A stretch of 64,000 bases of DNA from Actinomycetota bacterium (GCA_005798685.1 SYIT01000074.1:27639-91638), one strand, 5' to 3'; positions 33,435 through 50,454 are shown, counted from the stretch's first letter. The notes: generated by a model not told the origin, from the letters alone. Made by a program: numbers and translations.

Positions 33435-33439
33435 CAGCG

Positions 33440-34617: not shown

Positions 34618-34636
34618 CGCTCGTCGGCGGGGCAGA

Positions 34637-35722: not shown

Positions 35723-35808
35723 GTGAACGCTCTCAAACAGTTGTGCGGGGATGCGGCCGGCTGTCACTGCGGGGCGATCGTAACGCACGATGCAAGGCCC
35801 GGTCCCAG

Positions 35809-36447: not shown

Positions 36448-36485
36448 CGTTCAGCAGGGGGAAATTGCGTTCAACCTGCTGAACG
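36448..36485 (+). promoter_or_regulatory. perfect 11-bp inverted repeat (candidate IclR operator / 5'-UTR hairpin)
   Basis: cgttcagcagg (36448-36458), 16 nt, then cctgctgaacg (36475-36485). A third gttca half-site is at 36468-36472. It abuts the -10 box. Confidence 0.6.
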
Positions 36486-36494: not shown

Positions 36495-37334
36495 TTGACC
36501 GACGACCAGTATTACGTCCCAGCAGTACTCGCCGCCTCCCGGATTCTGGCGGCTCTCGCCCAGCCGGATGCTGACGGTCTGCGACAGAGCGAGCTCGCAC
36601 GGACGGCCGACCTCTCGAGGAGCACGGCACACAACATGCTCCACACGCTTGAGCACCTCGGGTACGTCCAGCGCGATCACACGACTAGGCTCTATCGACT
36701 CGGTGCGGCCCTCGTCCCTCTAGGGCAAGCTGCAGCGCAGACGACGAGGGTCGCCGAAGTGGCAGGAGAGCGAATTCCAACGCTTGCGGCCGAAGTGGGA
36801 CTCTCGTTCGCCTTGGCACAGGTGACCAGCTTCGATGAAGCTGTGATTATCGATCGGGCGTACGCCCCCTCGGGGCTTCATGTGGGCATCACCCTGGGCG
36901 ATCGCTACGGCCCGTTCGATGGCGCGATCGGCAAATGCATGCTCGCTGCGCTCGGAGCAGAGGACGCCGACCAACAGATCAAGCAAGCAGACCTTGCTCA
37001 GCGGACGGAGGCGACGATCACACGCCCGAAAGAACTGGCGCGAGAAGTCCGTCTAGTTCGCGGCCGTGGCTGGGCATCAAGTGTCAAAGAGTTCAACGAA
37101 AACCACGCCGTCGCGGCTGGGATTTGGGGGCAGGGGGGCCGGATGGAGTTAATCCTTCTGGCGCTTGGGTTCCCCGCTCAGCTCGGACCGAAGCAGATCT
37201 CCAGCGTGGGTTCATTACTGAGAGAAACCGCCGATGCCATCACTGAGGCATGTGGCGGAGAGCCAATCGATCGGGTGCGTCACGCACCTGTAACTACAGG
37301 CCCTTCAGGGGTCAAAGGGAGCAAGACCGCATGA
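36495..37334 (+). CDS. IclR-family transcriptional regulator
   Basis: wHTH 'LRQSELARTADLSRSTAHNMLHTLEHLGYV' followed by an effector-binding domain. TTG start; no ATG/GTG lies between it and the HTH. Confidence 0.88.
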   Translation: MTDDQYYVPAVLAASRILAALAQPDADGLRQSELARTADLSRSTAHNMLHTLEHLGYVQRDHTTRLYRLGAALVPLGQAAAQTTRVAEVAGERIPTLAAEVGLSFALAQVTSFDEAVIIDRAYAPSGLHVGITLGDRYGPFDGAIGKCMLAALGAEDADQQIKQADLAQRTEATITRPKELAREVRLVRGRGWASSVKEFNENHAVAAGIWGQGGRMELILLALGFPAQLGPKQISSVGSLLRETADAITEACGGEPIDRVRHAPVTTGPSGVKGSKTA

Positions 37335-38836
37335 GCGACCAAAGAGAAGTTGACCGTGTAATCACTGGTGGAACCGTCGTCACGCCTTCTGGCTCACGAC
37401 GCGCCGGAATTGCGATTGATGGGGAGCGAATCGTCGCGATTTGTGACGATTCGCTGCTGCCGCCATCCCGCGCTACGCATGACGCCAGCGGCCTCCACAT
37501 CATCCCGGGCCTCGTCGATACCGAGGCTCACCCGGGTTGTTACGTGCCGCTAAGGGAAGACCTCGCAAGCGAGAGCCGCGCGGCGGTTACCTCGGGCGTC
37601 ACGACCTGGGGTATTCACGCTCCGTCAACACGAATGGGCCACCCAGAGTGGGCCGAATTCGTCAACAAGGAGGACGTGATCTCGTTCCATGAGGTGATCG
37701 ACTACTTCACCGGGATCGTCGAGGACGTATCAGCCGTTGACACCTTCGTGACTTACATGTTGGAGACAGATCAGCAAGCGAAGGAGATCCCTGAGTACGC
37801 CCGCGACCACGGGGTCACGAGTTTTAAGCTTTATCTGCAGGCGATGAGCCCTGATGCTGAGCCAAACTGGCCCGGTCGTCGCGCCGGGCTTGGCGCTGGC
37901 TTCGATGACGGTGTCGTCTACCAGACGATGGAGAACACCGCGGCCCTCGGGTACCCCGGAATAGTGCTGATGCACTGCGAGAACTGGGAGATCGCTCGCG
38001 TCTTTGACGAGCGGCTGCGTGCCGAGGGTCGCACCGACTGGGCAACCTGGTCGGACCGCTCCCCTCACTTCCTAGAGGCTCAGCATGTCCGCCAGTACGG
38101 CCACTTCGCGGAGCATCTTGGCTGCCCGATTTACATCCAGCACGCGACCACGCCGGAGACATATCGGGAGATCCTTGATCTGCGCGGCCGTGGCGTAACC
38201 GTCCACGCCCAGACCGGTCCGCACTGGCTTGAGTTCGGCAAGGAGGAGCACAACGCGTGGCGGATTAACGTGCCGCTGCGATCGCGCGAGAACAACCCGA
38301 ACATCTGGAAGGCGCTCGCCGACGACGTCATCAACGCCGTCGGCTCCGACCACGTGACGCCGTTCGGTGACTCGGATTACGACTCCTGTTACAACGACAA
38401 CATCTGGGAGCTGAAGACCGGCTTTACGAGCCGCGTCGAGATGCTGTTGCCTGTGCTTTTGGAGGGCGTATATCAGGGGAAGATCTCGCTCACCAGAATG
38501 ATCGAGGTGGCCTGCGAAACGCCGGCCAAGATCTTCGGTCTCCACCCAAAGAAGGGGGCGATTGAAGTCGGCTCAGACGCCGACCTCGTCCTGGTCGACC
38601 TCGATAAGACTGTGCGCGTCGACAATTCGCAGCTGCTGACCCGCACAGGTTGGACGGCGCTGGAAGGTCACACGATGCACGGCTGGAACGTCGCCACATT
38701 CCTGCGTGGCAAGCAGATGTCGCGCTGGGAGGAAGGCGCCCCGGCCCCTGAGTTCATCGGTGATGCTGACGGCGAGTACTTGCGCCGCGTGCCGGGCCGC
38801 CAGCTTGTTGACGTCAATCTTCCCGAGGGGTCCTGA
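37331..38836 (+). CDS. cyclic amidohydrolase (dihydropyrimidinase/hydantoinase-like) with atypical first metal motif
   Basis: 'VITGGTVVTPSG', 'IIPGLVDTEAHPG' (ExH where HxH is expected), 'SFKLYL', 'LMHCEN', 'YIQHATT', 'VGSDHV'. ATGA overlap with the IclR stop. Confidence 0.8.
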   Translation: MSDQREVDRVITGGTVVTPSGSRRAGIAIDGERIVAICDDSLLPPSRATHDASGLHIIPGLVDTEAHPGCYVPLREDLASESRAAVTSGVTTWGIHAPSTRMGHPEWAEFVNKEDVISFHEVIDYFTGIVEDVSAVDTFVTYMLETDQQAKEIPEYARDHGVTSFKLYLQAMSPDAEPNWPGRRAGLGAGFDDGVVYQTMENTAALGYPGIVLMHCENWEIARVFDERLRAEGRTDWATWSDRSPHFLEAQHVRQYGHFAEHLGCPIYIQHATTPETYREILDLRGRGVTVHAQTGPHWLEFGKEEHNAWRINVPLRSRENNPNIWKALADDVINAVGSDHVTPFGDSDYDSCYNDNIWELKTGFTSRVEMLLPVLLEGVYQGKISLTRMIEVACETPAKIFGLHPKKGAIEVGSDADLVLVDLDKTVRVDNSQLLTRTGWTALEGHTMHGWNVATFLRGKQMSRWEEGAPAPEFIGDADGEYLRRVPGRQLVDVNLPEGS

Positions 38837-38837
38837 G

Positions 38838-39593
38838 ATGGCAGTTTGGGATGACGTACTTCCAGACATTGACCGCCAAGTCTTCGAGGCCGCGGGTTGG
38901 GGCAAAGACGCCGGCTACGGCGAGCGGCCGGTGCTGCTCGTCGTCGACGTCATCTACAACTTTGTGGGCGACAAGCCAGAGCCAATCCTGGAATCAATCA
39001 AGCGCTGGCGTTACTCCTGTGGCGAGCGCGGCTGGGAGGGCGTCAAGCACCTCGCCCGCCTGATCGAGGCAGCCCATGAGCAAGAGGTTCCGGTCTTCTA
39101 CACGGGCATGGATCGTCGCCCTGACGGCTTTGACCAAGGCGCCTGGAACTGGAAGAGCTACCGCTCAGGCGACGCATCGGATGTGAAGGGGTCTCTCGGT
39201 AACGAGGTCGTAGCTGAGATCGCGCCACAGCCGCAGGACGTGTACTTCGTCAAAGACAAGCCGAGTTCGTTTCTTGGCACGCCGCTGCTGAGTTATCTCA
39301 ACTATCTCAACGCTGACACGGTGATCACAACCGGCACCACGACAAGTGGCTGCGTACGGGCGACCGCTGTAGACGCCGCTCAGTACAACTTTCACTCAAT
39401 TGTTCCGGAGGAGTGCACTTGGGATCGCGGTGAGTTGACGCACAAGGTCAACCTCTTTGACATTCAGATGAAGTACGGCGATGTTAAGACGACCGACGAG
39501 GTAATCGAATATTTGCGCTCGTTGCCGAAGAGGCCGTGCGGAGAGAACACGCCGACCGGAAAAGCCAACTACACGGAAGAGAGCGACGGATGA
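38838..39593 (+). CDS. isochorismatase-family cysteine hydrolase (N-carbamoylsarcosine amidase / RutB-like)
   Basis: 'PVLLVVDVIYNF' (Asp), 'FVKDKPSSF' (Lys), 'TTGTTTSGCVRATAVDA' (Cys). The ATG follows the upstream stop after a 1-nt gap. Confidence 0.85.
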   Translation: MAVWDDVLPDIDRQVFEAAGWGKDAGYGERPVLLVVDVIYNFVGDKPEPILESIKRWRYSCGERGWEGVKHLARLIEAAHEQEVPVFYTGMDRRPDGFDQGAWNWKSYRSGDASDVKGSLGNEVVAEIAPQPQDVYFVKDKPSSFLGTPLLSYLNYLNADTVITTGTTTSGCVRATAVDAAQYNFHSIVPEECTWDRGELTHKVNLFDIQMKYGDVKTTDEVIEYLRSLPKRPCGENTPTGKANYTEESDG

Positions 39594-40159
39594 GCCTTAC
39601 GATTCGGAAGGTCGTTACCTATTGCGAAGAGATTCGCGTTGACGGAGCGCGAGCCGGTGAAGAGCCACTGCGTAAGGCTGCGGCCGCTGCGGTGGTAACA
39701 AACCCCTACGCCGGGAAGCCATTCTCGGACGATCTTTCAGAGATCGTCGATAACAGTGCAGAGCTCGGCAAGCTGCTTGGCGAGGCAGCGGCCGCCACAA
39801 TCGGTGTTCCCGTTGAGAGCTACGGCAAGGCATCGCTTGTAGGTACGGCAGGCGAGCAGGAGCACGCCGTAGCGATTAAGACGAGCGTCTTTGGTGATGC
39901 ATTTCGTGAAGCGATCGGAGGGGCGACGGCCTGGCTGCCGTCGGTATCTAAGCGTTGTGCGCCTGGCGCGAGCGTCGACGTGCCGCTTTGTTTCAAGGAC
40001 GAGGTTTGGGTTCGTTCGCACTATGACGCGGTCACGGTGACGATTGCTGATTCGCCCGCGCCGGACGAGATCGTGCTCGTCGTCGCGATCGCCTCCGGTG
40101 GCCGGCTTCACGAGCGACTTGGCGGAAAGACCGTCGAGGAGGCCCGTGCCGCCGAGTAG
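39590..40159 (+). CDS. 'amino acid synthesis' family protein (DUF1185)
   Basis: 'IRKVVTYCEEIRVDG...PLRKAAAAAVVTNPYAG', 'SYGKASLVGTAGEQEHAVA', 'VDVPLCFKDEVWVRSHYDAVTV', 'PDEIVLVVA'. 189 aa. ATGA overlap. Confidence 0.75.
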   Translation: MSLTIRKVVTYCEEIRVDGARAGEEPLRKAAAAAVVTNPYAGKPFSDDLSEIVDNSAELGKLLGEAAAATIGVPVESYGKASLVGTAGEQEHAVAIKTSVFGDAFREAIGGATAWLPSVSKRCAPGASVDVPLCFKDEVWVRSHYDAVTVTIADSPAPDEIVLVVAIASGGRLHERLGGKTVEEARAAE

Positions 40160-41654
40160 CCTAGATCACGGTGTGCTCAGCATCGGAGGCTGCGATGTCC
40201 TGCTGCCCGACGGCTCTGTTTCAGAGGGCGCTGGCCTGTGGATTGAGGACGGGCTTATCGCCGTTGCTCCTGCTGCCCCTGATCGGCAGGCCGAGCAGAT
40301 CGACGGCGATGGGATGTTGGCAATTCCAGGGTTGATCAACGCTCACAGCCACTCGCCCGAAGCCTGTCTGCGGGGTATTGGTGAAGGGCTAACGCTCGAG
40401 CCGTGGTTGATCATGATGTTTGCGTCTAGCGGCCTGTACAGCGAGCAGGACCACTATGACTGCGCACTGGCATCGGCGGCCGAGATGCTGCGGGCGGGGG
40501 TTACGACAGTCGTTGATCACCTCTGGATGACGCCGCCGAGTGGAGCCGCGATCGATGGCGCAATGCGGGCCTACCGTGACGCTGGCATCCGAGCGACGGT
40601 CGCCCCGCTGATGGGCGACCGCGATTACACGGAGGAGCTTGCCACCTCGGTCGGCATCGATCTAGGCGACGCCTCAATCGCCGCCCAGATCAAGCTGCTC
40701 ACCGCCGACGAGCTGATCGAGCTACTCAGCGGTGCGTTTGATCGCTGGCACGGCGCTGAGGGCGGTCGGCTGAGGATCTTGGCTGGCCCGAGCGGAATTC
40801 AGTGGGCATCGGACGAGTTGCTGGAGGGGCTCGCCGCGACGGCGCGGGCGAACGGTAGTGGGATCCACGTCCACCTGCTTGAAACTTTTGTGCAGGACGC
40901 GAGCTGTCGACTGCGCTTCGGTGGCAGCACCGTCGCAGCGCTCGACGACCTTGGCATCCTTGGCCCCGATTGCTCTTTCCCGCACAGCATTTGGCTTGAC
41001 GACGATGAGGTCGCGCTGATCGCAGAGCGCGGTGCGGTCGTCGTCCACAACCCTGCCGCCAATCAACGGCTTGGTTCGGGCCGGGCGCCGATCGCAGCCC
41101 TGCTCGACGCCGGTGCGACTGTTGCGCTGGGCACCGATGGCGCAGCCTCGTCGGACAACCACGACCTTTGGGACTGCGCCAAGCTCGCAGCGCTTATTCA
41201 CACCGACGGCGACAGCTGGGTAGACAGTGACCAGGCATTCGCGATGGCGACCATCGGCGGCGCTGCCGTCGCCGGTGGCCCTGCGCTACTCGGACGACTT
41301 GAGGTTGGCGCTCCGGCCGACGTCGTCTTGATTGAGCGCGACAGCCTTTGGCTGTCCGGAGCTCAGCAGATCGTCGCAAGCCTCGTCCTCTCCAACGGAG
41401 GTAAGGGCATTCGCCACGTACTTGTCGGCGGTCGGCCCGTCCTGCGTGACGGCGAACTGACCCTCGTAGACGAGAAGCAGACGATCAACAAACTTCGTGA
41501 ACAGACTGAGGCGCGGCGCGAAAGCGTTGCAAATCCGTCTGATCGCACGCGAGATGCGATGCGTCACATGGAGCAGGTCCGGGCTGTCGTAGCCGGGTTG
41601 GGGGCCACGGATGGCAAGGCTATGCAGTTTGTGGGTTTGGGAAAAAAAGGTTAG
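40146..41654 (+). CDS. amidohydrolase-superfamily deaminase/chlorohydrolase-like enzyme
   Basis: 'IPGLINAHSHSPEA' (HxH), 'HVHLLET', 'FPHSIWL', 'LGTDGAASSDNHD'. The GTG at 40146 overlaps the upstream gene by 14 nt. Confidence 0.82.
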   Translation: MPPSSLDHGVLSIGGCDVLLPDGSVSEGAGLWIEDGLIAVAPAAPDRQAEQIDGDGMLAIPGLINAHSHSPEACLRGIGEGLTLEPWLIMMFASSGLYSEQDHYDCALASAAEMLRAGVTTVVDHLWMTPPSGAAIDGAMRAYRDAGIRATVAPLMGDRDYTEELATSVGIDLGDASIAAQIKLLTADELIELLSGAFDRWHGAEGGRLRILAGPSGIQWASDELLEGLAATARANGSGIHVHLLETFVQDASCRLRFGGSTVAALDDLGILGPDCSFPHSIWLDDDEVALIAERGAVVVHNPAANQRLGSGRAPIAALLDAGATVALGTDGAASSDNHDLWDCAKLAALIHTDGDSWVDSDQAFAMATIGGAAVAGGPALLGRLEVGAPADVVLIERDSLWLSGAQQIVASLVLSNGGKGIRHVLVGGRPVLRDGELTLVDEKQTINKLREQTEARRESVANPSDRTRDAMRHMEQVRAVVAGLGATDGKAMQFVGLGKKG

Positions 41655-41655
41655 G

Positions 41656-41707
41656 GGAATGGCGGCGCTTCTGCCGCCATTCCAAGGTGGGGAGGCCCAA
41701 GGGGCCT
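41656..41707 (+). terminator. two consecutive GC-rich hairpins without U-tract (possible I-shaped terminator/attenuator)
   Basis: ggaatggcggc-gcttct-gccgccattcc (41656-41683, perfect 11-bp stem), then aggccc-aag-gggcct (41693-41707). Located between the amidohydrolase stop and the BMP gene. Confidence 0.45.
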
Positions 41708-41743
41708 TGAAGTTGGAACTAAAAACCGAATGAGGAGGAAGAG

Positions 41744-42775
41744 ATGAGAGGACTAAAGGGCTTGACCGCCTTAGGACTGACAGCAGTTGCGGCAGTGGGC
41801 GTGACGGCATGCGGGTCCAGCGATTCGAGTACCACGGAATCGACTGCGGCGAAATCGATCAAGGTCGCGATGGAACTGCCGGGACCGATCAATGACAAGG
41901 GGTTCAACGCTTCCGGTTATGCCGGGCTGATGAACTGCAAAGAGCAGGGTGCGACAACCACCTTTGCTGAGAAGGTTGCGGTTCCTGAGCAGGAGCGGAC
42001 GATGGAGGAGCTAGCCCAAAACAACGACGTTGTGATTGGTCACGGCTTCGAGTTCGGTGAGCCGGCTACGAAGCTGGCGCCGAAGTATCCGGATGTCAAG
42101 TTCGTGGTGACATCGAACCCGATCCCGCCGGAGGCGACGAATCAGGTAAACGTGATGCCGAACTCGACGCAGGGCGCGTATCTAGCTGGTGTAGCTGCCG
42201 GAAAGGCAACCAAGTCAAACAAGATCGGCGGAATCGGCGGTTTTGATTTCCCTGTGCTGAAGTCGCAGATGGAAGCACTTGAGGCTGGTGCGAAGTCGGT
42301 CAACCCGAACGCGACGACGAAAATCGTCTACCTCGGGACGTTCGATGACGTTTCTAAGGGCAAGGAAGCAGCGCAAAGCATGGCCGCATCGGGCATTGAC
42401 GTGATTTATCACATCGCCGACGCAGCCGGGATCGGCATCATCAATGGCGCACAGGCCGCCGGGATCAAGGCAATCGGTTGGGGCATCGACCAGAACTCGA
42501 TCGCGCCTGACACTGTGATCGCAAGTCAGATCGTCAAGACGGACGTGATGATCGGCGCTCAGTGCAAGGCAGCTATTGACGGCAAGTTTGTTGGCGGCAA
42601 AGTGGTTGTCAATGGCCTCAAGAGTGGGGTTATTGATCTGACCAAGGTCTACAACGAACCGGCCGATGTTCAGGCCGCAGTCGACAAGGCCAGGACAGCG
42701 ATTGAAGACGGCACCGAAAAGGGCGTGCCGGAGATTGCTCCAGGCATCCCATCAACCGGCCCTGAGAGCAACTAG
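41744..42775 (+). CDS. BMP-family (PnrA/Med-like) ABC transporter substrate-binding lipoprotein
   Basis: Lipobox 'GVTACGSS', 'PINDKGFNASGY', 'GGIGGFDFPVL'. GAGGAGG RBS upstream. Confidence 0.88.
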   Translation: MRGLKGLTALGLTAVAAVGVTACGSSDSSTTESTAAKSIKVAMELPGPINDKGFNASGYAGLMNCKEQGATTTFAEKVAVPEQERTMEELAQNNDVVIGHGFEFGEPATKLAPKYPDVKFVVTSNPIPPEATNQVNVMPNSTQGAYLAGVAAGKATKSNKIGGIGGFDFPVLKSQMEALEAGAKSVNPNATTKIVYLGTFDDVSKGKEAAQSMAASGIDVIYHIADAAGIGIINGAQAAGIKAIGWGIDQNSIAPDTVIASQIVKTDVMIGAQCKAAIDGKFVGGKVVVNGLKSGVIDLTKVYNEPADVQAAVDKARTAIEDGTEKGVPEIAPGIPSTGPESN

Positions 42776-42805
42776 AGCCCGGAACCAAGGAACACGAAGC
42801 GCGTC

Positions 42806-44320
42806 ATGACAGCACTGGTGAAAATGAGCGGGATCGTTAAGTCATTCGGCGAGACGATCGCCAACGATGACGTTTCGCTCGAGATCGCCGCCGGTGAGGT
42901 GCACGCACTGCTCGGCGAGAACGGGGCTGGCAAGACGACGCTGATGAACATCCTCTACGGGCTAACGATCCCGGACGAGGGAACGATCGAGGTTGGCGGG
43001 GTTGCCGTGGCACCACGGAACCCCGCCGACGCGATTGATGCAGGAGTTGGGATGGTCCACCAACACCCGCTCGTGGTTGGAGCGCTTACGGTGGCGGAGA
43101 ACTTCTCGCTCGGCGGGCTGGGTGACGGCTCTCCCGCTTCGATGCTTGAAGCGGTTGCCGATGTCGTGCAGACAATCCCACTTGAGGTTGATCCTAGGGC
43201 ACGAATCGACTCACTCCCGATGTCGCTCAGGCAGCGCGTGGAGATTGTTCGCTGCCTTGCGCACGGGGTCAGGGTTCTCGTGCTCGACGAACCGACCGCG
43301 GTACTGACCCCCAATGAGGTGCAGCAGCTCTTCGGCGAGATGGAGCGCGTCGTCGAACAGGGCCGAAGCGTCATCTTTATCACGCATAAGCTTGCCGAGG
43401 TCCAGACGATTGCACAGCGCGTGACGGTTCTGCGCCATGGACGCAATGTCGGCAGTTTCGCCGTCGGCGACATCACTTCAGCCGAGCTGGCAGAGCAGAT
43501 GGTGGGCCGAGAGTTGTCCGACCGTTCGGCGAAGGGCGCCCCGCGGGCAGCCGGCGCAGCCCGTCTGGAGCTCCGCGGCGTATGCGCGGTCGGCGATGAT
43601 GGCGAATGCCTGCTCGACAATCTTGACCTCGAGGTTTGTGCCGGCGAAATTGTTGCGATCGCCGGGGTGGAGGGAAATGGGCAACGGCCGCTTGCGGACA
43701 TCTGTTTCGGTTTGCGTGTTCCGGACTCAGGCGAGGTGCTCCATGATGACGAGCGGCTTCCTCAGCTAAGAGATTGGGGTCACTCTAAGGTTGCGATTGC
43801 GAGGATTCCGGAAGATCGCCGCCACGAGGGGCTTCTGATTGATTCGCCGCTCTGGGAAAATCTTCGCTACGGGCCGAACCTGTCAGCCAAGCGCGGGCTG
43901 ATCAACCGTCGGCACGAAGTTGCCCGCGCCCGTTCGCTACTCGAAGAATTCGGTGTCGTACCACCCGATCCAATGGTCGCTCCGTCGGCGCTCTCTGGTG
44001 GAAACCAGCAGAAGGTTGTGCTCGCGCGCGAGTTATCAAGTGATCCCGATCTGGTTGTTGCCGTGAACCCGACGAGAGGGCTTGACATCGGCGCCCAGCG
44101 CGACGTTCGCGACCGGCTGGCCGCGCTGCGCGACGCAGGCAGAGCGGTCCTCGTGATCTCGACCGACCTGGACGAAGTGATCGAGATCGGCGACCGGGTC
44201 GGTGTTCTCTATCGCGGTCGCCTCGAAACGCCAATCGCCCAAAACGCCGTTGATCGAGCCCGCATCGGTAAGGCGATGGCTGGGCTGCTGGATGATCAAC
44301 AGGACCGCGCAGAAGCATGA
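42806..44320 (+). CDS. ABC transporter ATP-binding protein, duplicated ATPase
   Basis: Walker A 'GENGAGKTTLMN', 'VLDEPTAVL', and second-half signature 'LSGGNQQK'. 504 aa. Confidence 0.92.
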   Translation: MTALVKMSGIVKSFGETIANDDVSLEIAAGEVHALLGENGAGKTTLMNILYGLTIPDEGTIEVGGVAVAPRNPADAIDAGVGMVHQHPLVVGALTVAENFSLGGLGDGSPASMLEAVADVVQTIPLEVDPRARIDSLPMSLRQRVEIVRCLAHGVRVLVLDEPTAVLTPNEVQQLFGEMERVVEQGRSVIFITHKLAEVQTIAQRVTVLRHGRNVGSFAVGDITSAELAEQMVGRELSDRSAKGAPRAAGAARLELRGVCAVGDDGECLLDNLDLEVCAGEIVAIAGVEGNGQRPLADICFGLRVPDSGEVLHDDERLPQLRDWGHSKVAIARIPEDRRHEGLLIDSPLWENLRYGPNLSAKRGLINRRHEVARARSLLEEFGVVPPDPMVAPSALSGGNQQKVVLARELSSDPDLVVAVNPTRGLDIGAQRDVRDRLAALRDAGRAVLVISTDLDEVIEIGDRVGVLYRGRLETPIAQNAVDRARIGKAMAGLLDDQQDRAEA

Positions 44321-45378
44321 CCATCGAAAGGTTTATTCCCGCGCTTACCCGGGGCGCCGTGGCGTTGATCGGCACCTTGGCCGTCGGCCTCGTCGCCGTT
44401 CTCGCGGCCGGGCTGGATCCGGTCACGACTCTTCAGGCAATCATCGACGGGGCGCTCGGAAGCCCATACGCAATCCGTCAGTCGCTGACCGAGGCCGTGC
44501 CCGTAACTCTTACGGCGCTGGGGGTGGCGGTTGCGTTCCGCGCTGGCCTGTTCAACCTCGGCGGCGACGGGCAGATCTACATCGGCGCGCTTGGCGCCGT
44601 GGGGATCTCGCTGCTCTTCCCAGATCTGACGCCGGCTCTCTTGATCCCGTTCGCGCTAGGTGTTGGAATGCTCGGGGGGCTTATTTGGGGAGGCATCGCC
44701 GGCGTGTTGCGTGCGAAGTTGAGGCTCTCCGAAATCATCACGACGATCATGCTCAACTTCATTGCCTTTTGGATCGTCAGCTACCTGGTGCATGGTCCAC
44801 TGAAAGATCCGGGGGGGAGCGGCTACCCGCTTACGCGCGAGATCCCCGAGGCGGCCCAGCTGCCGGTCTTTGGTGATCTGATCCCCTCTGGAGCGGTCCT
44901 GATGCTGGTGGCAGCATTCTGCGTCTGGCTCCTGCTGGAGAGGACGCCAACGGGCATCAAGATCAAGGGTACGGGTTCGAGCGCCTCGGCAAGCCATTTC
45001 GCGGGCGTGTCGATGAGCCGGGTAACGATTCTCGTTATGGCGATCGCGGGCGCTTTGGCTGGTCTTGGAGGCGCTGTCAGCCTTCAGGGAGATCAGTACA
45101 AGCTTGGTGATTTCTTCAGCCCCGGGTGGGGTTTCGACGCCGTAGCCGTAGCCTTGATTGGACGCGGAACAGCTGCCGGGACCCTAATTACAGGCATCGC
45201 AGTCGGGGCGCTTCGCAGTGGGATTCAGAGCGCCCAAGGGACGGCTGAGGTCCCATCGTCGATCGCCCAAATACTGCTTGCAGCGGCGGTCCTCTTTGTG
45301 ATCGTCGGTAATGCCGAGGGCGCGGGCCAACTTGTCCGCCGAAGCTGGGCCCGGACGAGAGAATTGGCCAGTGAGTGA
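44317..45378 (+). CDS. ABC transporter permease
   Basis: Polytopic. 'GLFNLGGDGQIYIGA' is typical of BMP/ribose-type permeases. ATGA overlap. Confidence 0.88.
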   Translation: MTIERFIPALTRGAVALIGTLAVGLVAVLAAGLDPVTTLQAIIDGALGSPYAIRQSLTEAVPVTLTALGVAVAFRAGLFNLGGDGQIYIGALGAVGISLLFPDLTPALLIPFALGVGMLGGLIWGGIAGVLRAKLRLSEIITTIMLNFIAFWIVSYLVHGPLKDPGGSGYPLTREIPEAAQLPVFGDLIPSGAVLMLVAAFCVWLLLERTPTGIKIKGTGSSASASHFAGVSMSRVTILVMAIAGALAGLGGAVSLQGDQYKLGDFFSPGWGFDAVAVALIGRGTAAGTLITGIAVGALRSGIQSAQGTAEVPSSIAQILLAAAVLFVIVGNAEGAGQLVRRSWARTRELASE

Positions 45379-46303
45379 TCTCTTTGACATCGTAACCTCG
45401 GCAACGCTCTACGCGGCGGCGATCAGGCTCGCTTTGCCGATCTTCCTCGCGGCGCTTGGCGAAACATTTGCTGAGCGCGCCGGGCTCGTAAATGTAGGTC
45501 TTGAAGGGATGATGCTGATGGGTGCCTTTGGCGCCGTGCTTGGCTCGGACGTCACCGGCAGTGCGTTGGCGGGCGTGGCGATAGGGCTGCTCTTCGCGGT
45601 TCTCGTTGCGGCGATTCAGGGTTTCGTTTCGATCAATTTTGGTGGGGATCAGATCGTCTGCGGTATCGCGCTCAACATCGGCGCGCTGGGCGTCACGGCC
45701 TTCCTGGTTAGAGCTATATGGGAAGGTGGTAACGCTCCCCAGGTCGCAGGTTTCTCGGCTTTTGACCTGCCCCTGCTAGCGAACGCTCCATTCGTCGGGG
45801 TAGCGGTCTTCCAGCAGGGTATTTTCGTCTATGTCGCGCTCGTGTTGGCGTTGATCAGTTGGTGGGCACTGATGAAAACTGGCTGGGGGCTGCGGATGCG
45901 TGGATGCGGCGAGGACCCATTGGCCTGCGAAAGTCTTGGTATCCCAGTCAAGCGCTTGCGTTGGCAAGCAATGCTGATCTGCGGTGCATGCGCCGGGCTA
46001 GGTGGCGTCTTCCTAGCTCTGGGTCAATTACTGACTTTCAGCGACGGGATGAGCGGCGGCCGTGGCTTCATCGCGCTCGCGGTCGTAATCATCGCGCGTT
46101 GGTCGCCAATGCTGGCGGTTCCGTCTGCGCTGTTGTTCGGTGCAGTAGAGGCGTTCGCGCTTCGCGTCCAGAGTTCTGATCTCAATGTTCCACCGGAACT
46201 GATGCTCGCGTTGCCGTATCTCGCAACGATCATCGTCTACGCGATCGTCGTCGGCCGCAGCAACCCGCCGGCGGCGCTCGGGCGAACCTATGTACGTCAA
46301 TGA
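45371..46303 (+). CDS. ABC transporter permease
   Basis: 'AERAGLVNVGLEGMMLMGA'. The GTG at 45371 overlaps the upstream permease by 8 nt. The track start is 45311. Confidence 0.88.
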   Translation: MSDLFDIVTSATLYAAAIRLALPIFLAALGETFAERAGLVNVGLEGMMLMGAFGAVLGSDVTGSALAGVAIGLLFAVLVAAIQGFVSINFGGDQIVCGIALNIGALGVTAFLVRAIWEGGNAPQVAGFSAFDLPLLANAPFVGVAVFQQGIFVYVALVLALISWWALMKTGWGLRMRGCGEDPLACESLGIPVKRLRWQAMLICGACAGLGGVFLALGQLLTFSDGMSGGRGFIALAVVIIARWSPMLAVPSALLFGAVEAFALRVQSSDLNVPPELMLALPYLATIIVYAIVVGRSNPPAALGRTYVRQ

Positions 46304-46323
46304 ACCGCTAAGGAGAAGACTCC

Positions 46324-47235
46324 ATGTCAGTTACGCAACCTTATTCGCTTCGAGTGGCCGCATACCAGCCAGCCGTTATTGCTTCCGAGCCTGAAGCCTC
46401 GCGCGTTGATGAGGCAGCCGAGGCAATTCGCCTCGCTTCGACCGATGGCGCTCAGCTGATCGTCTTCCCAGAGGGTTACCCGGGGCCGCTCCGAGCATCG
46501 GCAGACTACGACGCGGCGCCGGCGATCTCACAGGCGGCAGCCAGCGCCAACTGCGCGGTCTGCTGGAGCCGTATAGAACGATGCGATGACGGTCGCTACC
46601 GCAAGGTTGCCTACCTAATCAACGAGAAGGGTGAGCAGGTTCTCCGCTACGAGCGCGCCCACCCGGCGACCGGCGATATTCACCCGGCGCTCTCGGGGGT
46701 CTCACTTGCGCCCGGGCCAGAGCTCGGGATCGCAGAGCTCTTCGGCATCACGGTTGGCGTGCTTATCTGCTCCGAGCTGTGGCTTCCCGAAGTGTCTCGC
46801 TCACTTGTAGTGAGTGGCGCCGAGTTGCTCCTCGCTCCCGCCGGGGGTGGCTTTGGAAAGGTCGCTCCAAACTGGCAGCTGATAGCCCGCGCACGAGCGA
46901 TCGAGAACGAGGCCTATGTCGTCCTTACTCAGCACCTCTTTGGAGGAGAGGAAGGCGCAGCACTGATCGCTGGCCCGGAGGACTTGGTGAGCGAGTCGAA
47001 GAAGGCCGGCGTGCTGCTTGGCGATCTTGACCTTGCGAGGCTCCGCTGGCTGCGTGAGACTGACGATTCAATGGCGAATCCGAAGCCTTTCACTTCGCTC
47101 CCCGGCTTGTTGCGTGCTAGGCGACCGCAGCTTTACGGCGTGCTCAGCGCGCCTGCTGATGGCCTCTACGACTACGAAGGCAAGGCCACTCCGGCTGACT
47201 TTGTCGCGCCGAGCGCGCCTCCCGGGGTGTCATGA
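46324..47235 (+). CDS. carbon-nitrogen hydrolase (nitrilase superfamily)
   Basis: E-K-C triad context: 'LIVFPEGY', 'YRKVAYL', 'VLICSELWLPE'. Confidence 0.85.
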   Translation: MSVTQPYSLRVAAYQPAVIASEPEASRVDEAAEAIRLASTDGAQLIVFPEGYPGPLRASADYDAAPAISQAAASANCAVCWSRIERCDDGRYRKVAYLINEKGEQVLRYERAHPATGDIHPALSGVSLAPGPELGIAELFGITVGVLICSELWLPEVSRSLVVSGAELLLAPAGGGFGKVAPNWQLIARARAIENEAYVVLTQHLFGGEEGAALIAGPEDLVSESKKAGVLLGDLDLARLRWLRETDDSMANPKPFTSLPGLLRARRPQLYGVLSAPADGLYDYEGKATPADFVAPSAPPGVS

Positions 47236-48344
47236 GCACCGGTTGGGTTTGGGACGAGCGCTACATGTGGCATGACACCGGCCACGCAGCGGCGTTCCTG
47301 ACTGCGGGCGGCGTGCTTGAGCCCGATGAGCATGTTGAACGGCCCGCGACCAAGCGACGACTGCGCAATCTGCTCGAAGTGAGTGGGATGCTTGAGCAGC
47401 TAACGCCGATTAAGGCTCGCGAAGCAACGCCTGAAGAGTTGACGCGAGTGCACAGCTCAGCGCACGTAGAGCACGTTCAGCAGGTCAGCGCCAACGGAGG
47501 CGGCATGGCTGGTGATCAAACGCCGATCGGCCCGGGTGGCTACGAGATCGTGGCTCTCGCTGCTGGAGGCGCGATCGCTGCTGTCGATGCTGTCATCGGC
47601 GGTGAAGTCGACAATGCTTACGCACTGATCCGGCCTCCGGGCCATCACAGCGGCATCGATCAGAGCCTTGGCTTCTGCGTCTTCAACAACGTCGCTGTCG
47701 CGGCTGAGCATGCGCGCGCTGTCCACAGATTGGATCGGGTAGCAATCATCGATTGGGACGCCCACCACGGCAACGGAACGCAAGAGATCTTCTGGGATCA
47801 GCCAAGGGTTTTGACGATCTCCGTCCATCAGGACGGCGGCTATCCGCCCCGGTCAGGTCTCGTTGACGAACGTGGTTCGGATAAAGCGCTCGCAACAAAC
47901 ATCAACATCCCGCTACCTCCCGGATCAGGAGTAGGCGCATACGAGGCTGCGATCGGTCAGATTGTCGTTCCCGCCCTTCACGCCTTCCGGCCAGATCTGA
48001 TCATCGTCGCCTGCGGCTTTGACGCCAGCCCGATGGATCCGCTCGCGCGGATGATGGTTCACAGCGCCGGCTTCGCTGAGATGACTGCCTCCGTGATGGC
48101 CGCCGCCGATCAACTCTGCGGTGGGCGGCTTGTCTGCTGCCATGAGGGCGGCTACGCAGCGCCGTACGTTCCTTTCTGTGGGCTCGCCGTGATCGAGACG
48201 CTGAGCGGCCACAGCAGCGGCGTCGAGGACCCATTTCTCGGTGGCTATTCGTCACTTCCGTTCCAGGAGCTTCAGCCACACCAAGCCGCGGCGATTGAGT
48301 CCGCTTTCCCCGATCTAGCGAAGCTCAAGGAGGCCGCATCGTGA
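47232..48344 (+). CDS. histone-deacetylase-family amidohydrolase (acetylpolyamine/acetoin-utilisation type)
   Basis: 'IRPPGHHSG', 'IIDWDAHHGNGTQ', 'CCHEGGY'. ATGA overlap. Confidence 0.88.
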   Translation: MSTGWVWDERYMWHDTGHAAAFLTAGGVLEPDEHVERPATKRRLRNLLEVSGMLEQLTPIKAREATPEELTRVHSSAHVEHVQQVSANGGGMAGDQTPIGPGGYEIVALAAGGAIAAVDAVIGGEVDNAYALIRPPGHHSGIDQSLGFCVFNNVAVAAEHARAVHRLDRVAIIDWDAHHGNGTQEIFWDQPRVLTISVHQDGGYPPRSGLVDERGSDKALATNINIPLPPGSGVGAYEAAIGQIVVPALHAFRPDLIIVACGFDASPMDPLARMMVHSAGFAEMTASVMAAADQLCGGRLVCCHEGGYAAPYVPFCGLAVIETLSGHSSGVEDPFLGGYSSLPFQELQPHQAAAIESAFPDLAKLKEAAS

Positions 48345-49282
48345 GCGTCAAGCTGAACCGCGCGCAGCTCGTCAAGTCATCGAGCTCGACCCCGAACCCG
48401 CCCTACGGGGTAGACCCCAAGCTGACCTTCTACTGCCCTCAGGAGAACCTCGAGGCGCTCGATATTCCGGTAGTCAAGCACTTCTTGCGCTGGGCCGAGG
48501 ACGATTACAAACCGGCGTCGACGAAGAAGCCCAAGGTCCTCTTGCTGTTGCCGTGCCAGAAGGTCAAGCCTTACGCGATCTCGCCGGAACACCTCGCGAT
48601 CAACAGCTATCTGCTCGCTGCCGGCTATGCGCCGATGGAACGCGGCGATTGGCCGGAAGAGATCGGCGAACTTGCTGCCGGCCCGCTGCTTAGCAACGGC
48701 CCGCTTGAAGGCCACGGTTTGCAGATTGATCGCGCCGTCATCTCCGAGCCGTTTGGCTTCGTTCCCTACTCAGCGATGTACTACTGGAACGGCAAGCTCT
48801 CGCCCTGTGGCCAGTACGACGATCCAGGCCTGTTCGCGCACCGCGGGTTGGCGTGCACGTGGCGCAGCGACAATACCGCTGTGCCGCAAGATGGGAAGTG
48901 GCGCTGGGGAGACAACGAACGCGCCGCCTACGTCGAGGTTCACAACCGTCTTGCGGAGTCGATGGCAACGGCGCTCAGCCGTATTGCCTCTAACTACGAG
49001 GCAATCTACGCCTACGTCGCACCGGCGTTGACGCACCGGTCGTTCATTGTCGATCGCGCCCAGAGTACGGCCGCCGGAATGTCCAACGCTCGCCGGGTCG
49101 GCTCGCAGATACGCCCGCTGGTTGGTGTAAATGACCTCGTGCCGGGGCTCGTAAATCTCGTCCCCGACGCAACGCAGTTGGGGCGCCTGCGCAAGCAGAT
49201 GGGCGGCAGACTGCCGGCAAAACTGCTGTCTACCGACCCCGCGCTCAGACTGTTGACGACTGCAATCGGAGCCAATCGATGA
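48341..49282 (+). CDS. hypothetical protein carrying the ArcS C1-domain (DUF5591-type) PC-X3-KPY-X2-S-X2-H motif
   Basis: nt 48551-48592 encode P-C-QKV-K-P-Y-AI-S-PE-H within 'KVLLLLPCQKVKPYAISPEHLAI'. No TGT or PUA domain visible. Start/stop overlaps on both sides (GTGA upstream, ATGA downstream). Confidence 0.6.
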   Translation: MSVKLNRAQLVKSSSSTPNPPYGVDPKLTFYCPQENLEALDIPVVKHFLRWAEDDYKPASTKKPKVLLLLPCQKVKPYAISPEHLAINSYLLAAGYAPMERGDWPEEIGELAAGPLLSNGPLEGHGLQIDRAVISEPFGFVPYSAMYYWNGKLSPCGQYDDPGLFAHRGLACTWRSDNTAVPQDGKWRWGDNERAAYVEVHNRLAESMATALSRIASNYEAIYAYVAPALTHRSFIVDRAQSTAAGMSNARRVGSQIRPLVGVNDLVPGLVNLVPDATQLGRLRKQMGGRLPAKLLSTDPALRLLTTAIGANR

Positions 49283-50454
49283 CTATCGGATCACTGGAAA
49301 TTCGCAACCTCGGCGGCCTCGTCAGCGGTCGACTCGATGATTCGCTTCAGAGCGTGAACGAGATCCGCTGCGAGGATGGCCGGATCGTCGCGCTGGAGTC
49401 GGGCGGCGACGCCGATCTGGTGATCGACGCCTGCGGCGCAATCGCGGCTCCGGGGCTGATCGATTCTCACGCCCACGTCGTCTTTGGTGACTGGACGCCG
49501 CGCCAGTCAACTCTTGGCTGGATCGAGAGCTACATGCACGGTGGGGTGACGATGATGATGTCAGCCTCTGAGGTTCACCTTCCAGGACGACCGGCCGACC
49601 GAGAGGGAGTAAAGGCGCTGGCGATTACGGCCCAGCGTGCCTTTGCAGATTTCCGGCCCGGCGGGGTAAAGGTGCTTGCCGGGTCGGTGATCATCGAACC
49701 GACGCTCGAACCCTCAGACTTCGATCAAATGGCGGCGGCTGGAGTGAAGCTGGCGAAGGTCGGCTTCGGTGATTTCGACAAGCCCGCCGATGCTGCACCG
49801 CTGGTGCGAGCTGCTCAGGCCGCAGGAATGATCGTGATGAACCACACCGGTGGCGCATCTATTCCAGGCTCACGGCCGGTCACGGCGGAGGACTGCATCA
49901 CGCTCGGCTGCGACTTCATTGGCCACGCAAACGGTGGCCCAACGTCGCTGCCCGACGAAGATCTTCCGCTGCTGCTTGATGCCGCGGGCGCGATCCAACT
50001 GGTTCAGGCCGGAAACCTTCGCTCCAGTCTGCTGCTGCTTGAGTTGGCCCGCGAGCGAGGCGCGATGGAGCGGATCGTGATCGCGACCGACACCCCTACT
50101 GGAACCGGGGTCATGCCACTCGGGATGATCAAGACCGTGACCGAGCTCTCGTCGCTGGGCGGTATTTCCGCTAGCGATTCGCTAGCGATGGCGACAGGAA
50201 ACAACGCCCGCGTGCTGCGCCGCGAGGAGGGGATCCTCGAAGTCGGCCGACCGGCTGATTTCGCGCTGCTCGAGCCGCCTCTCGGGGGCGCCGCGGACAA
50301 CGCGCTGGCCGCGATCGAGAGGGGCGATCTGCCCGGCATCTCGGCCGTGGTGATTGACGGCGCGCTGCGAGCCCTGCGCTCACGAAACGCGCCAGCATCT
50401 ACGAACCCCGCCGCAGTTATCTCCGGGAACCTTCCAGCAGCGTTCAGGAATTGA
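49279..50454 (+). CDS. amidohydrolase-superfamily enzyme, enamidase-like
   Basis: 'APGLIDSHAHVVFGDWTPRQSTLGWIESYMHGGVTMMMSA', 'HLPGRP', 'MNHTGGASIPGS', 'IGHANGGPT'. The enamidase-like call is from my memory of that family's blocks. Confidence 0.7.
   Translation: MTIGSLEIRNLGGLVSGRLDDSLQSVNEIRCEDGRIVALESGGDADLVIDACGAIAAPGLIDSHAHVVFGDWTPRQSTLGWIESYMHGGVTMMMSASEVHLPGRPADREGVKALAITAQRAFADFRPGGVKVLAGSVIIEPTLEPSDFDQMAAAGVKLAKVGFGDFDKPADAAPLVRAAQAAGMIVMNHTGGASIPGSRPVTAEDCITLGCDFIGHANGGPTSLPDEDLPLLLDAAGAIQLVQAGNLRSSLLLLELARERGAMERIVIATDTPTGTGVMPLGMIKTVTELSSLGGISASDSLAMATGNNARVLRREEGILEVGRPADFALLEPPLGGAADNALAAIERGDLPGISAVVIDGALRALRSRNAPASTNPAAVISGNLPAAFRN

Follow-up and report, generated by a model that had tools for sequence, protein, structure and literature searches.

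A 64,000-nucleotide (nt) stretch of DNA from an Actinomycetota bacterium (GCA_005798685.1 SYIT01000074.1:27639-91638), referred to here as the window, carries a co-directional supercluster of about 25 genes that covers at least 27.5 kb, from position 36495 to at least 63997. The cluster encodes two importers and a varied set of hydrolases; no described pathway uses this enzyme set, and no orthologous cluster could be tied to a known route. New here are the undescribed enzyme set itself, three protein families without a known function in this context, and an enzyme resembling archaeosine synthase (ArcS) in an unexpected setting. By analogy with the characterized relatives of its proteins, we favor, tentatively and with somewhat less than even confidence, the reading that the cluster imports and mainly hydrolytically dismantles amino-substituted pyrimidine-ring bases (the purine, deazapurine and aminopyrimidine class), scavenging nitrogen and some carbon.

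A sequence-only reading of this DNA had described 13 co-directional genes between positions 36495 and 50454. All 13 (G1-G13) were found on the + strand as open reading frames (ORFs) exactly at the positions given for them, and every family call was borne out by Pfam, NCBIfam and PDB comparisons. The boundaries were not: the same-strand string of genes runs on to the end of the window, at least as far as 63997, and its junctions stay tight or overlapping, so that the region first described is the first half of the unit and G15, G16, G20 and G24 lie outside it. The cluster may extend beyond the window end. The earlier reading had also counted eight ATGA/GTGA junctions, six of which are true 4-nt overlaps (37331, 39590, 44317, 47232, 48341 and 49279). 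The other two are overlaps of other kinds, with a GTG start and 14 nt at 40146, where the G4 stop is TAG, and a GTG start and 8 nt at 45371. A single nt lies between G2 and G3, larger gaps come after G5 (89 nt), G6 (30 nt) and G9 (20 nt), and 4-nt overlaps join G21 to G22 and G24 to G25. Gene starts are uncertain for G5 and G16. Families were assigned with Pfam and with NCBIfam equivalog cut-offs, and solved relatives are PDB sequence matches. The gene content, family assignments and overlapping junctions, like the conservation and modularity described below, were observed directly. The genes of the cluster are as follows.

36495-37334, + strand: G1, IclR-family regulator with a TTG start (Pfam HTH_IclR and IclR_C; no NCBIfam equivalog cut-off reached)
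37331-38836, + strand: G2, cyclic amidohydrolase of the hydantoinase/dihydropyrimidinase/allantoinase class, with E-x-H replacing the H-x-H metal motif
38838-39593, + strand: G3, isochorismatase-fold cysteine amidase (Pfam Isochorismatase, 97 bits)
39590-40159, + strand: G4, DUF1185/AA_synth protein (Pfam, 217 bits)
40146-41654, + strand: G5, TRZ/ATZ (cog0402-type) aminohydrolase/deaminase of the BMP module (Pfam Amidohydro_1; HxH and HxxE motifs seen)
41744-42775, + strand: G6, BMP/PnrA-family lipoprotein, a substrate-binding protein (Pfam Bmp, 198 bits against a cut-off of 24)
42806-44320, + strand: G7, double-ATPase protein of an ATP-binding cassette (ABC) importer (Pfam ABC_tran, twice)
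44317-45378, + strand: G8, permease (Pfam BPD_transp_2)
45371-46303, + strand: G9, permease (Pfam BPD_transp_2)
46324-47235, + strand: G10, nitrilase-superfamily (CN_hydrolase) amidase (Pfam, 77 bits; no equivalog reached)
47232-48344, + strand: G11, HDAC-like/acetylpolyamine-amidohydrolase-like deacylase (Pfam Hist_deacetyl, 289 bits)
48341-49282, + strand: G12, stand-alone ArcS C1-like protein with the motif P71-C72-x3-K76-P77-Y78-x2-S81-x2-H84 (weak Pfam DUF5591 match, E 2e-4)
49279-50454, + strand: G13, enamidase homologue of the amidohydrolase superfamily (PDB 2vun enamidase, E 1e-88, 301 bits, residues 8-379)
50509-51933, + strand: G14, NAD(P)-dependent aldehyde dehydrogenase (Pfam Aldedh, 433 bits; no equivalog reached)
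51933-52571, + strand: G15, DUF1989 protein (Pfam, 123 bits; PDB 3oru and 9q59)
52553-53224 (start 52553, 52568 or 52610), + strand: G16, class II aldolase-fold protein (Pfam Aldolase_II)
53221-54300, + strand: G17, binding protein of an NMT1/ThiY-type ABC importer (Pfam NMT1)
54300-55100, + strand: G18, ATPase of the same importer (Pfam ABC_tran)
55100-55966, + strand: G19, permease of the same importer (Pfam BPD_transp_1)
55963-57345, + strand: G20, second TRZ/ATZ-type aminohydrolase/deaminase (NCBIfam TRZ/ATZ family hydrolase, 319 bits against 540)
57373-59013, + strand: G21, CrtO/CrtI-like FAD oxidoreductase (Pfam Amino_oxidase; CrtO 309 bits against a cut-off of 1000)
59010-60008, + strand: G22, O-methyltransferase-like protein (Pfam Methyltransf_2)
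60072-61826, + strand: G23, thiamine-pyrophosphate (TPP) enzyme of the acetolactate-synthase/5-guanidino-2-oxopentanoate-decarboxylase type (Pfam and NCBIfam)
61860-63200, + strand: G24, class III aminotransferase (Pfam and NCBIfam)
63197-63997, + strand: G25, xylose-isomerase-like TIM-barrel protein (Pfam AP_endonuc_2)

Since G12 is the most distinctive protein of the cluster, it was chosen as bait for a neighborhood survey in which one genome per species was scanned; of 189 matches, 80 loci were kept. Window genes were compared with the ORFs of these loci by BLASTP, and each ORF was assigned to the best-scoring window gene. The carriers, mostly metagenome-assembled genomes (MAGs), belong to Solirubrobacterales, Conexibacter, Acidimicrobiia including sponge symbionts, Actinocorallia, Microbacterium, Chloroflexota/Anaerolineae, Acidobacteriota, Alphaproteobacteria (Falsiroseomonas, Roseomonas, Ciceribacter and Parvibaculum) and one Lachnospiraceae. 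Cultured strains among them are Conexibacter woesei DSM 14684 (CP001854, 4.61-4.63 Mb), Actinocorallia aurantiaca JCM 8201, Microbacterium aquimaris KCTC 19124 and Falsiroseomonas stagni DSM 19981. Because G12 homologues in 80 genomes from several phyla are surrounded by the same genes, chance juxtaposition was rejected, and the conservation outside this genome on which the sequence-only reading depended was confirmed.

Linkage was counted in a full-flank subset of 51 loci with 10 kb on both sides of G12. Of the 51, 46 have a TRZ/ATZ-type hydrolase gene resembling G5 or G20 no more than 10 kb from G12, and 26 have all six of G2, G3, G4, G13, G15 and G16. G24 is present in 30 loci, the BMP importer (G6-G9 together) and the G21 and G22 pair in 21 each, G14 in 18, G10 in 16, NMT1-type ABC genes in 13, G11 in 12 and G23 in one. 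The genes most often linked to G12 include G15, G16, G20 and G24, and the least conserved are the IclR gene, G11 and G10. Among the additional families obtained by clustering the neighboring ORFs, none exceeded 24 loci; a GntR-type regulator was the most frequent.

These neighborhoods indicated that the window is a mosaic of two 'upper' modules, each with an importer and a deaminase, a six-gene 'lower' module, and a tail. The earlier picture of one fixed array of seven hydrolases was therefore not upheld, as the modules also occur separately. A typical order in Acidimicrobiia is G2 G3 G4 G13 G15 G12 G16 G24 G20 G21 G22. Cultured Conexibacter woesei has a short IclR-type helix-turn-helix ORF, a gene of the adenosine/adenine-deaminase family, G2, G3, G5, G10, G12 and G14, with a different importer, and some actinobacterial contigs hold G5, the BMP importer, G10 and G12 only. 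The minimal set, in one Lachnospiraceae genome, comprises IclR and G12 together with the BMP importer, a MatE pump and a hydrolase that resembles guanine deaminase (287 bits, cut-off 375). In an alphaproteobacterial variant (L079, L082 and L083, from Falsiroseomonas and Roseomonas), G12 and two TRZ/ATZ hydrolases are accompanied by an HpaB-like monooxygenase, an amidase-signature enzyme, a lysine/ornithine-oxygenase-like flavoprotein and a family-3 binding protein, and the six-gene hydrolytic module is absent. In five Anaerolineae loci (L085, positions 1-9993, and L020, L021, L023 and L028), five genes lie directly upstream of a block of G10, G5, G12, the BMP importer and an aminotransferase. 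They encode a TRZ/ATZ-type amidohydrolase (SsnA among its NCBIfam matches), a GltD/YgfK-like flavoprotein, a PreA equivalog (408 bits against 335 in L085), a molybdenum (Mo) enzyme like selenium-dependent xanthine dehydrogenase (XDH; 733 against 830) and a second DHO_dh-family gene.

Two related contigs, from a Solirubrobacteraceae MAG and an Actinomycetota MAG, are 82-95% identical to the window at the nucleotide level, and on this basis the window was assigned to a Solirubrobacteraceae-like actinobacterium. In the Solirubrobacteraceae MAG (L006), a close relative, window positions 53255-57186, which hold G17-G19 and most of G20, are missing between flanks of 82-95% identity. This gap looks like a 3.9-kb deletion in L006, because the last ~160 nt of G20 are retained there.

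Membership of a known pathway was rejected because no equivalog cut-off was reached by any enzyme scanned in the window and because it lacks the enzymes that mark the Pyd/PreTA, Rut, creatinine, nicotinate-fermentation and reductive uric-acid routes. The claim of the sequence-only reading that no known route uses this set therefore stands. It agrees with full-text literature searches (DUF5591, DUF1185, DUF1989, PF06684, PF09347, PF17884, enamidase, xanthine amidohydrolase and preQ0 catabolism), which returned no such cluster or pathway in open-access papers and preprints; subscription journals may hold one. With respect to Pyd/PreTA and Rut, the cluster shares a cyclic amidohydrolase, a CN_hydrolase or isochorismatase-fold amidase, a small protein of related fold (G4), an aminotransferase and semialdehyde oxidation, yet half of its core genes have no counterpart there, and G2 and G3 fail the dihydropyrimidinase and RutB equivalogs. 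A tblastn search of the window with the L085 PreA equivalog and its PreT-like partner gave no match at E <= 1e-5, and Pfam scans of the region detected neither a DHO_dh domain nor the luciferase-like monooxygenase (RutA) family. The creatinine/N-methylhydantoin route employs an ATP-dependent N-methylhydantoinase, whereas G2 is a cyclic amidohydrolase of the kind that needs no ATP; the scanned genes contained neither a hydantoinase A/B nor a sarcosine-oxidase domain.

Nicotinate catabolism (the Eubacterium barkeri enamidase; NicF) and vitamin B6 degradation (HMPDdc, which decarboxylates 3-hydroxy-2-methylpyridine-4,5-dicarboxylate) resemble the cluster through the relatives of G13, G3 and G16. 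Their other pathway-specific families were not seen in the window, whose deaminases, hydantoinase-type enzyme and importers point instead to rings with at least two nitrogens; among the genes annotated between 28 and 64 kb, there is no 6-hydroxynicotinate reductase or enzyme of the 2-(hydroxymethyl)glutarate branch, only a generic Mo-hydroxylase upstream. The s-triazine/biuret routes (AtzT, AtzA/B/C/TrzN and BiuH) share an AtzT-related BMP binding protein, TRZ/ATZ hydrolases and an isochorismatase-fold amidase. Cyanuric-acid and allophanate hydrolase families were not seen here, however, and an enamidase, a decarboxylase, an aminotransferase and an aldehyde dehydrogenase would make no sense for triazines.

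Two purine routes were also compared. The reductive uric-acid (2,8-dioxopurine) pathway of E. coli and Clostridia uses XdhD, YgfK/UacX, SsnA, HyuA, YgeW/UacY, YgeY and YgeX (PMC12507026). It resembles the present system in combining a Mo-hydroxylase, a TRZ/ATZ-superfamily amidohydrolase and a hydantoinase-class amidohydrolase with subsequent stepwise removal of ureido groups, and the Anaerolineae genes upstream of the G10-G5-G12-BMP block match its gene families, as in the Clostridium-type cluster. It has no counterpart, however, of the enamidase homologue, DUF1185, DUF1989, the isochorismatase-fold amidase, G16 or G12. The SsnA equivalog NF005540 has a cut-off of 444 bits, of which G5 reaches 131 and G20 181; neither a PreA/UacX homologue nor a GltD-like one was found in the window, and no carbamoyltransferase, M20 peptidase or pyridoxal-phosphate lyase family (YgeW, YgeY and YgeX, respectively) in the scans. 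The hydrolytic xanthine fermentation of Clostridium cylindrosporum and C. acidurici is known from enzymology of the 1950s, and its genes were never identified (PMC3519856). It proceeds from xanthine via 4-ureido-5-imidazolecarboxylate, 4-amino-5-imidazolecarboxylate, 4-aminoimidazole and 4-imidazolone to formiminoglycine (PMC3519856). Its chemical logic is alike: hydrolysis of a ring amide, decarbamoylation, decarboxylation, deamination, opening of a lactam, and an amidine-type remnant. One possible assignment of this order would be G2, G3, G16, G4, G13 and G15/G12, a resemblance of logic only, as there are no sequences to compare. This fermentation needs neither an aminotransferase nor an aldehyde dehydrogenase, and the carriers here are mostly aerobic soil and marine lineages.

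The six genes of the lower module encode the putative ring-cleaving enzymes. G2 matches the dihydropyrimidinase model TIGR02033 with 193 bits (cut-off 393) and allantoinase with 186 bits, also below the cut-off, and its closest solved relatives are L- and D-hydantoinases (E 1e-45). Within its clade, a conserved Glu takes the place of the first His of H-x-H (V-D-x-E-a-H-p-G), and the carbamylated-lysine position, two His and the Asp are retained; E65-x-H67, K165, H214, H272 and D339 are kept in 36 orthologues (L001-L084). The nearest PDB entries to G3 are 4l07/4l08, N-carbamoylsarcosine amidohydrolases (26st, E 8e-32; 1nba, E 8e-25) and the maleamate amidohydrolase NicF (3uao/3ot4), and the matches to 4l07/4l08 and to the N-carbamoylsarcosine amidohydrolases are equally good. 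G3 scores 41.7 bits against RutB (TIGR03614, cut-off 378) and is likewise far below the BiuH equivalog cut-off. RidA/YjgF imine deaminases and RutC share the Bacillus chorismate-mutase fold. G4, which occurs together with G2 and G3 in 36 loci, belongs to DUF1185, whose fold is that of Bacillus chorismate mutase (PMC2954203).

G13, present in 41 of 84 loci, is by sequence a clear enamidase homologue over nearly its full length. DUF1989, the family of G15, comprises urea-amidolyase-associated proteins and the N-terminal domain of trimethylamine N-oxide demethylase; G15 is the commonest upstream neighbor of G12 (15 loci). The best PDB match of G16 is 2z7b, Mlr6791, the Mn-dependent HMPDdc, and NCBIfam also reports 3,4-dihydroxyphthalate decarboxylase. 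On the basis of these two matches, G16 is probably a decarboxylase rather than a sugar-phosphate aldolase. The nearest characterized relatives of G13, G3, G16 and G2, as identified by sequence similarity, all act on ring fragments of N-heterocycles.

Each upper module pairs an importer with a deaminase. The BMP/PnrA-type set is complete, with a Bmp binding protein, a double ATPase and two BPD_transp_2 permeases. The solved relatives of G6 are Lbp (7x0r, the best), BmpD (6shu), 3s99, AtzT (6pi5), TmpC (2fqw) and TpN38(b) (4iil), and thus range over nucleoside binders (BmpD and TmpC), AtzT and a riboflavin binder. The second importer has a binding protein, G17, related to 4nmy and to ThiY (3ix1, E 3e-26), which binds N-formyl-4-amino-5-aminomethyl-2-methylpyrimidine (FAMP). 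For both importers, proteins that bind N-heterocyclic bases are among the relatives, namely AtzT and 3s99 in the case of G6 and ThiY in that of G17. A lipoprotein of ~470 residues with no Pfam match is encoded beside G18/G19-type ABC genes in nine loci (e.g. L032, 5024-6430); it is probably an unrecognized substrate-binding protein that replaces G17.

The sequence-only reading had called the first importer nucleoside-class. Its BMP-type ABC nature was confirmed, while the step from there to nucleosides proved weak. No nucleoside hydrolase or phosphorylase is conserved among the neighbors in the 80 loci (neighbor-ORF clustering), and a nucleoside-specific reading was not adopted for this reason. 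Given also the AtzT and riboflavin-binder relatives of G6 and the ThiY-related second importer, a free base appears more likely than a nucleoside as the imported substrate. Catabolism of the thiamine pyrimidines hydroxymethylpyrimidine (HMP) and FAMP was considered for the ThiY-type module and folded into the general class, as the similarity to ThiY is its sole sequence basis. In this candidate route, attractive in view of older work on thiamine degradation, deformylation/transamination would presumably be followed by oxidation to the 5-carboxylate, its decarboxylation and a deamination after which an acetamidine remnant is left.

The deaminases G5 and G20, both of the cog0402 type, are equidistant from 8-oxoguanine, methylthioadenosine/S-adenosylhomocysteine (MTA/SAH) and 5'-deoxyadenosine deaminases and from triazine hydrolases. 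G5 scores 224 bits for 8-oxoguanine deaminase (cut-off 532) and 216 for N-ethylammeline chlorohydrolase (cut-off 609), and G20 matches the MTA/SAH deaminase 4f0r with an E value of 2e-61. The deacylase G11 usually adjoins the BMP transporter in the loci that carry it.

G12 contains the complete motif PC-X3-KPY-X2-S-X2-H (P71 C72 QKV K76 P77 Y78 AI S81 PE H84), which has been given as specific to the catalytic C1 domain of ArcS (PMC10516641). The alignment of the G12 family has 51 invariant positions; in 25 members, C72, K76, P77, Y78 and H84 never vary, and conservation of P71 and S81 is at least 90%. Similarity to ArcS is confined to ~55 residues, with ~230 residues lying outside. G12 scores 21.7 bits for Pfam DUF5591 (cut-off 26) and 19.9 bits for the ArcS equivalog NF040592 (cut-off 440), covering model positions 271-318 only, and no TGT-like, C2 or PUA domain was detected in it with Pfam. 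In an exhaustive profile search, ArcS-sized proteins (550-700 residues) matched the G12 profile only at the motif region, positions ~37-95, and in a sequence profile search of PDB, AF0587 was likewise matched at the motif region only. The family proper is compact, with ~35 clusters at 50% identity (profile search, E <= 1e-30). At least 799 relatives exist at the 90% clustering level, and among the matches listed their source names are only 'hypothetical' or 'DUF5591 domain-containing'.

The AF2 (AlphaFold) model of G12 has a pLDDT (predicted local distance difference test) of 94. Foldseek comparison of this model with PDB gave no match (nothing better than E 0.2 and a TM-score of 0.27). The top match in BFVD (viral proteins) was R9TEI9, a DUF5591 protein of Vibrio phage nt-1 (E 4.8e-4, probability 1.00, TM-score 0.58 on the target). 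The ArcS of this phage converts dPreQ0 to dG+ in DNA (PMC10516641), and ArcS accepts free preQ0 nucleoside and nucleotide (PMC11298593). G12 is thus related to ArcS and to the nt-1 ArcS by the complete C1 motif and the match of its model to the phage DUF5591 protein, and it differs in its domain content, its score and its context, as it is encoded amid importers and hydrolases and not among genes for the modification of tRNA, DNA or other nucleic acids. Motif and model together place G12 as a distinct, distant relative of the ArcS catalytic domain. As a guess, its chemistry might be on a nitrile or an amidine.

The regulator gene at the head of the cluster is preceded by a candidate operator, and a second non-coding element lies between G5 and the BMP gene.

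36448-36485, no strand assigned: inverted repeat with 16-nt arms and a 6-nt loop, ending 10 nt before the G1 start
41656-41683, + strand: hairpin with a perfect 11-bp stem and a 6-nt loop; it adjoins the G5 stop and falls within the 89 nt between G5 and the BMP gene

The exact 10-nt core palindrome of the first repeat is unique in the window and was matched in none of 100 shuffles, and this repeat is a candidate IclR operator. An IclR gene like G1 is found near G12 in only seven related loci, and a GntR-type regulator stands in its place in 24. The gap that holds the second element is the sole sizeable one in the first half of the cluster, and no T-run follows the stem; this hairpin may serve in processing, attenuation or mRNA stability. 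A whole-window Rfam scan at gathering thresholds gave no match, and control by a riboswitch or other RNA was rejected. Promoter and terminator scans gave counts no higher than in shuffled sequence and are therefore uninformative on operon borders.

Directly upstream of G1, at 30193-36396, lies a complete Mo-hydroxylase set.

30193-36396, - strand: CoxL-like large subunit, FAD subunit, CoxG, 2Fe-2S subunit and XdhC
30193-36396, + strand: MobA-like gene

As this set is linked to G12 in only 4 of the 51 full-flank loci, it was placed outside the core; it could possibly provide an accessory ring-hydroxylation step. The aldehyde dehydrogenase gene G14 follows G12 directly in Conexibacter and in eight other loci. 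Elsewhere in the window, positions 1-15100 hold unrelated sugar-nucleotide/polysaccharide genes (epimerases/dehydratases, methyltransferases, a DegT-type aminotransferase, a family-2 glycosyltransferase and a TPP enzyme), and a two-component system unrelated to the cluster lies at 25246-27398.

Amino-substituted pyrimidine-ring bases are the favored substrate class because of the uric-acid-type genes in Anaerolineae, the adjacent Mo-hydroxylase, the guanine-deaminase-like gene in the Lachnospiraceae genome, the adenosine/adenine-deaminase-family gene in Conexibacter, and the two importers. In the proposed scheme, bases would enter through the BMP-type importer G6-G9 and the ThiY/NMT1-type importer G17-G19, and the TRZ/ATZ aminohydrolase that accompanies each (G5 or G20) would exchange an exocyclic amino for an oxo group. 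The HDAC-like G11, the nitrilase-superfamily G10 and the ArcS-C1-like G12 may strip N-acyl, carbamoyl and nitrile/amidine side groups. The ring amide would then be opened by the E-x-H cyclic amidohydrolase G2, carbamoyl or amide nitrogen would be released by the cysteine amidase G3, and the newly exposed carboxylate would be removed by G16. G4 could handle an enamine or imine, and the remaining cyclic enamide would be opened by G13 to yield an aldehyde and NH3. An amidine- or guanidine-type remnant may be deiminated by G15, and G14 and G24 would feed the carbon skeleton to central metabolism. The gene string would probably be controlled by the IclR protein G1 via the palindrome at 36448-36485.

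Several points weigh against this scheme. Its substrate class and its order of steps are inferred, and each individual reaction is assigned by analogy, since no enzyme reaches an equivalog cut-off; for G13, G3 and G16 alike, the nearest relatives belong to pyridine pathways rather than to purine or pyrimidine ones. The window contains no ring reductase (no PreA/PreT homologue by tblastn) and no oxygenase, and opening an aromatic ring by hydrolysis only is demanding. The contexts of G12 are 'upper' in some cases and 'lower' in others, which leaves its step without a fixed position, and G21 and G22 have no obvious place in a hydrolytic route. Finally, all of the linkage frequencies are conditional on the G12 bait.

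The cluster could instead be a variant of ordinary uracil, thymine and cytosine catabolism. In that case, cytosine-type deamination would fall to G5/G20, the dihydropyrimidinase step to G2, hydrolysis of N-carbamoyl-beta-alanine or ureidoacrylate to G3/G10, transamination of beta-alanine to G24 and dehydrogenation of malonate semialdehyde to G14. Dihydropyrimidinase is indeed the best NCBIfam match of G2, G3 weakly matches RutB, G10 belongs to the beta-ureidopropionase superfamily, the class III aminotransferase and the aldehyde dehydrogenase suit the end of the reductive route, and the PreA equivalog adjoins the G10-G5-G12-BMP block in L085 and four related Anaerolineae loci. We nevertheless consider this variant unlikely. 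The window has no dihydropyrimidine dehydrogenase by tblastn and no monooxygenase family among its annotated genes, G2 (193 against 393 bits, with an altered metal motif) and G3 (42 against 378) fall well short of their models, and no role is left for G13, G15, G16, G4 and G12, the most conserved genes. The PreA-like genes, moreover, occur in only 5 of the 80 loci, four of them beside an XDH-like gene, which is a purine-type context. A route from pyridine carboxylates (nicotinate-like, vitamin B6-like or pyridine dicarboxylates) would use a Mo-dependent hydroxylation step together with G16 as decarboxylase, G13 to open an enamide, G3 to hydrolyze an amide and G14 to oxidize an aldehyde. It would account for the strong match of G13 to the enamidase of nicotinate fermentation, for NicF among the relatives of G3 and HMPDdc as the best solved relative of G16, and for the Mo-hydroxylase genes that adjoin the cluster. 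It would also make both the TRZ/ATZ deaminases, which accompany G12 in nearly all full-flank loci, and the hydantoinase-type core enzyme G2 superfluous. The Mo-hydroxylase is rarely linked, the annotated window genes include neither a 6-hydroxynicotinate reductase nor a monooxygenase family, and the importers resemble binders of purines, triazines and aminopyrimidines, all of which makes this route quite improbable.

A pathway devoted to 7-deazapurines (preQ0, archaeosine base, queuine or toyocamycin-type compounds) would be a subset of the favored purine, deazapurine and aminopyrimidine reading, with G12 transforming the C7 nitrile or amidine, G5/G20 deaminating, and the lower module opening the pyrimidine and pyrrole rings. 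In its boldest form the fused rings would be taken apart by hydrolysis only, through the E-x-H cyclic amidohydrolase, the cysteine amidase, the decarboxylase and a lactam hydrolase of the enamidase type. The complete and invariant ArcS C1 motif of G12, the phage match and the acceptance of free preQ0 nucleoside and nucleotide by ArcS (PMC11298593) all speak for it, as does the minimal operon of IclR, G12, BMP importer and guanine-deaminase-like enzyme. An enamidase-type enzyme would, in addition, suit the pyrrolinone left after opening of the pyrimidine ring. Still, the ArcS similarity of G12 is limited to the motif region and its model has no Foldseek match in PDB; tgt, queC/D/E/F and yhhQ are not recurrent in the 80 loci (neighbor clustering), and 7-deazapurines would be scarce nutrients for so widespread a cluster, which leaves this narrower route distinctly doubtful. 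The modules may also be independent operons for different nitrogen compounds, a catabolic island in which the BMP, ThiY-type and six-gene hydrolase modules and the G21-G24 tail are simply neighbors. They are found separately in many genomes, L006 is without G17-G20, a hairpin and an 89-nt gap separate G5 from G6, and the regulators vary between IclR and GntR by lineage. However, the modules re-associate in varied orders in Solirubrobacterales, Acidimicrobiia, Chloroflexota, Acidobacteriota and Alphaproteobacteria, and this re-association in distant phyla argues for a functional link. G12 bridges modules, and stop/start overlaps span the module borders G12/G13, G16/G17 and G19/G20, so that an island of unconnected operons seems unlikely too. 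Lastly, G21, G22, G23 and G24 are of types common in biosynthesis and might belong to a cluster that makes a small nitrogen-rich metabolite. Two binding-protein-dependent importers, at least nine hydrolases and IclR and GntR regulators typical of catabolism contradict this, and no scaffold enzyme of the nonribosomal peptide synthetase, polyketide synthase, ATP-grasp or radical S-adenosylmethionine kind appeared in any scan; we regard a biosynthetic role as very improbable indeed.

If the favored reading is true, heterocyclic bases are scavenged for nitrogen by an uncharacterized pathway whose carriers include soil Solirubrobacterales, sponge-associated Acidimicrobiia, Chloroflexota, Acidobacteriota and Alphaproteobacteria. 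It offers testable roles for DUF1185, for DUF1989 in this context, for the G12/DUF5591-like family and for a new metal-site variant of the cyclic amidohydrolases, and since cultured carriers exist, a direct experimental test is possible. The cluster might also supply candidate genes for the hydrolytic purine ring cleavage described in the 1950s, whose genes were never found. ArcS-type nitrile/amidine chemistry would move from nucleic-acid modification into small-molecule catabolism, and if the 7-deazapurine reading were true, G12 would head the first known 7-deazapurine catabolic route, acting on free small molecules.

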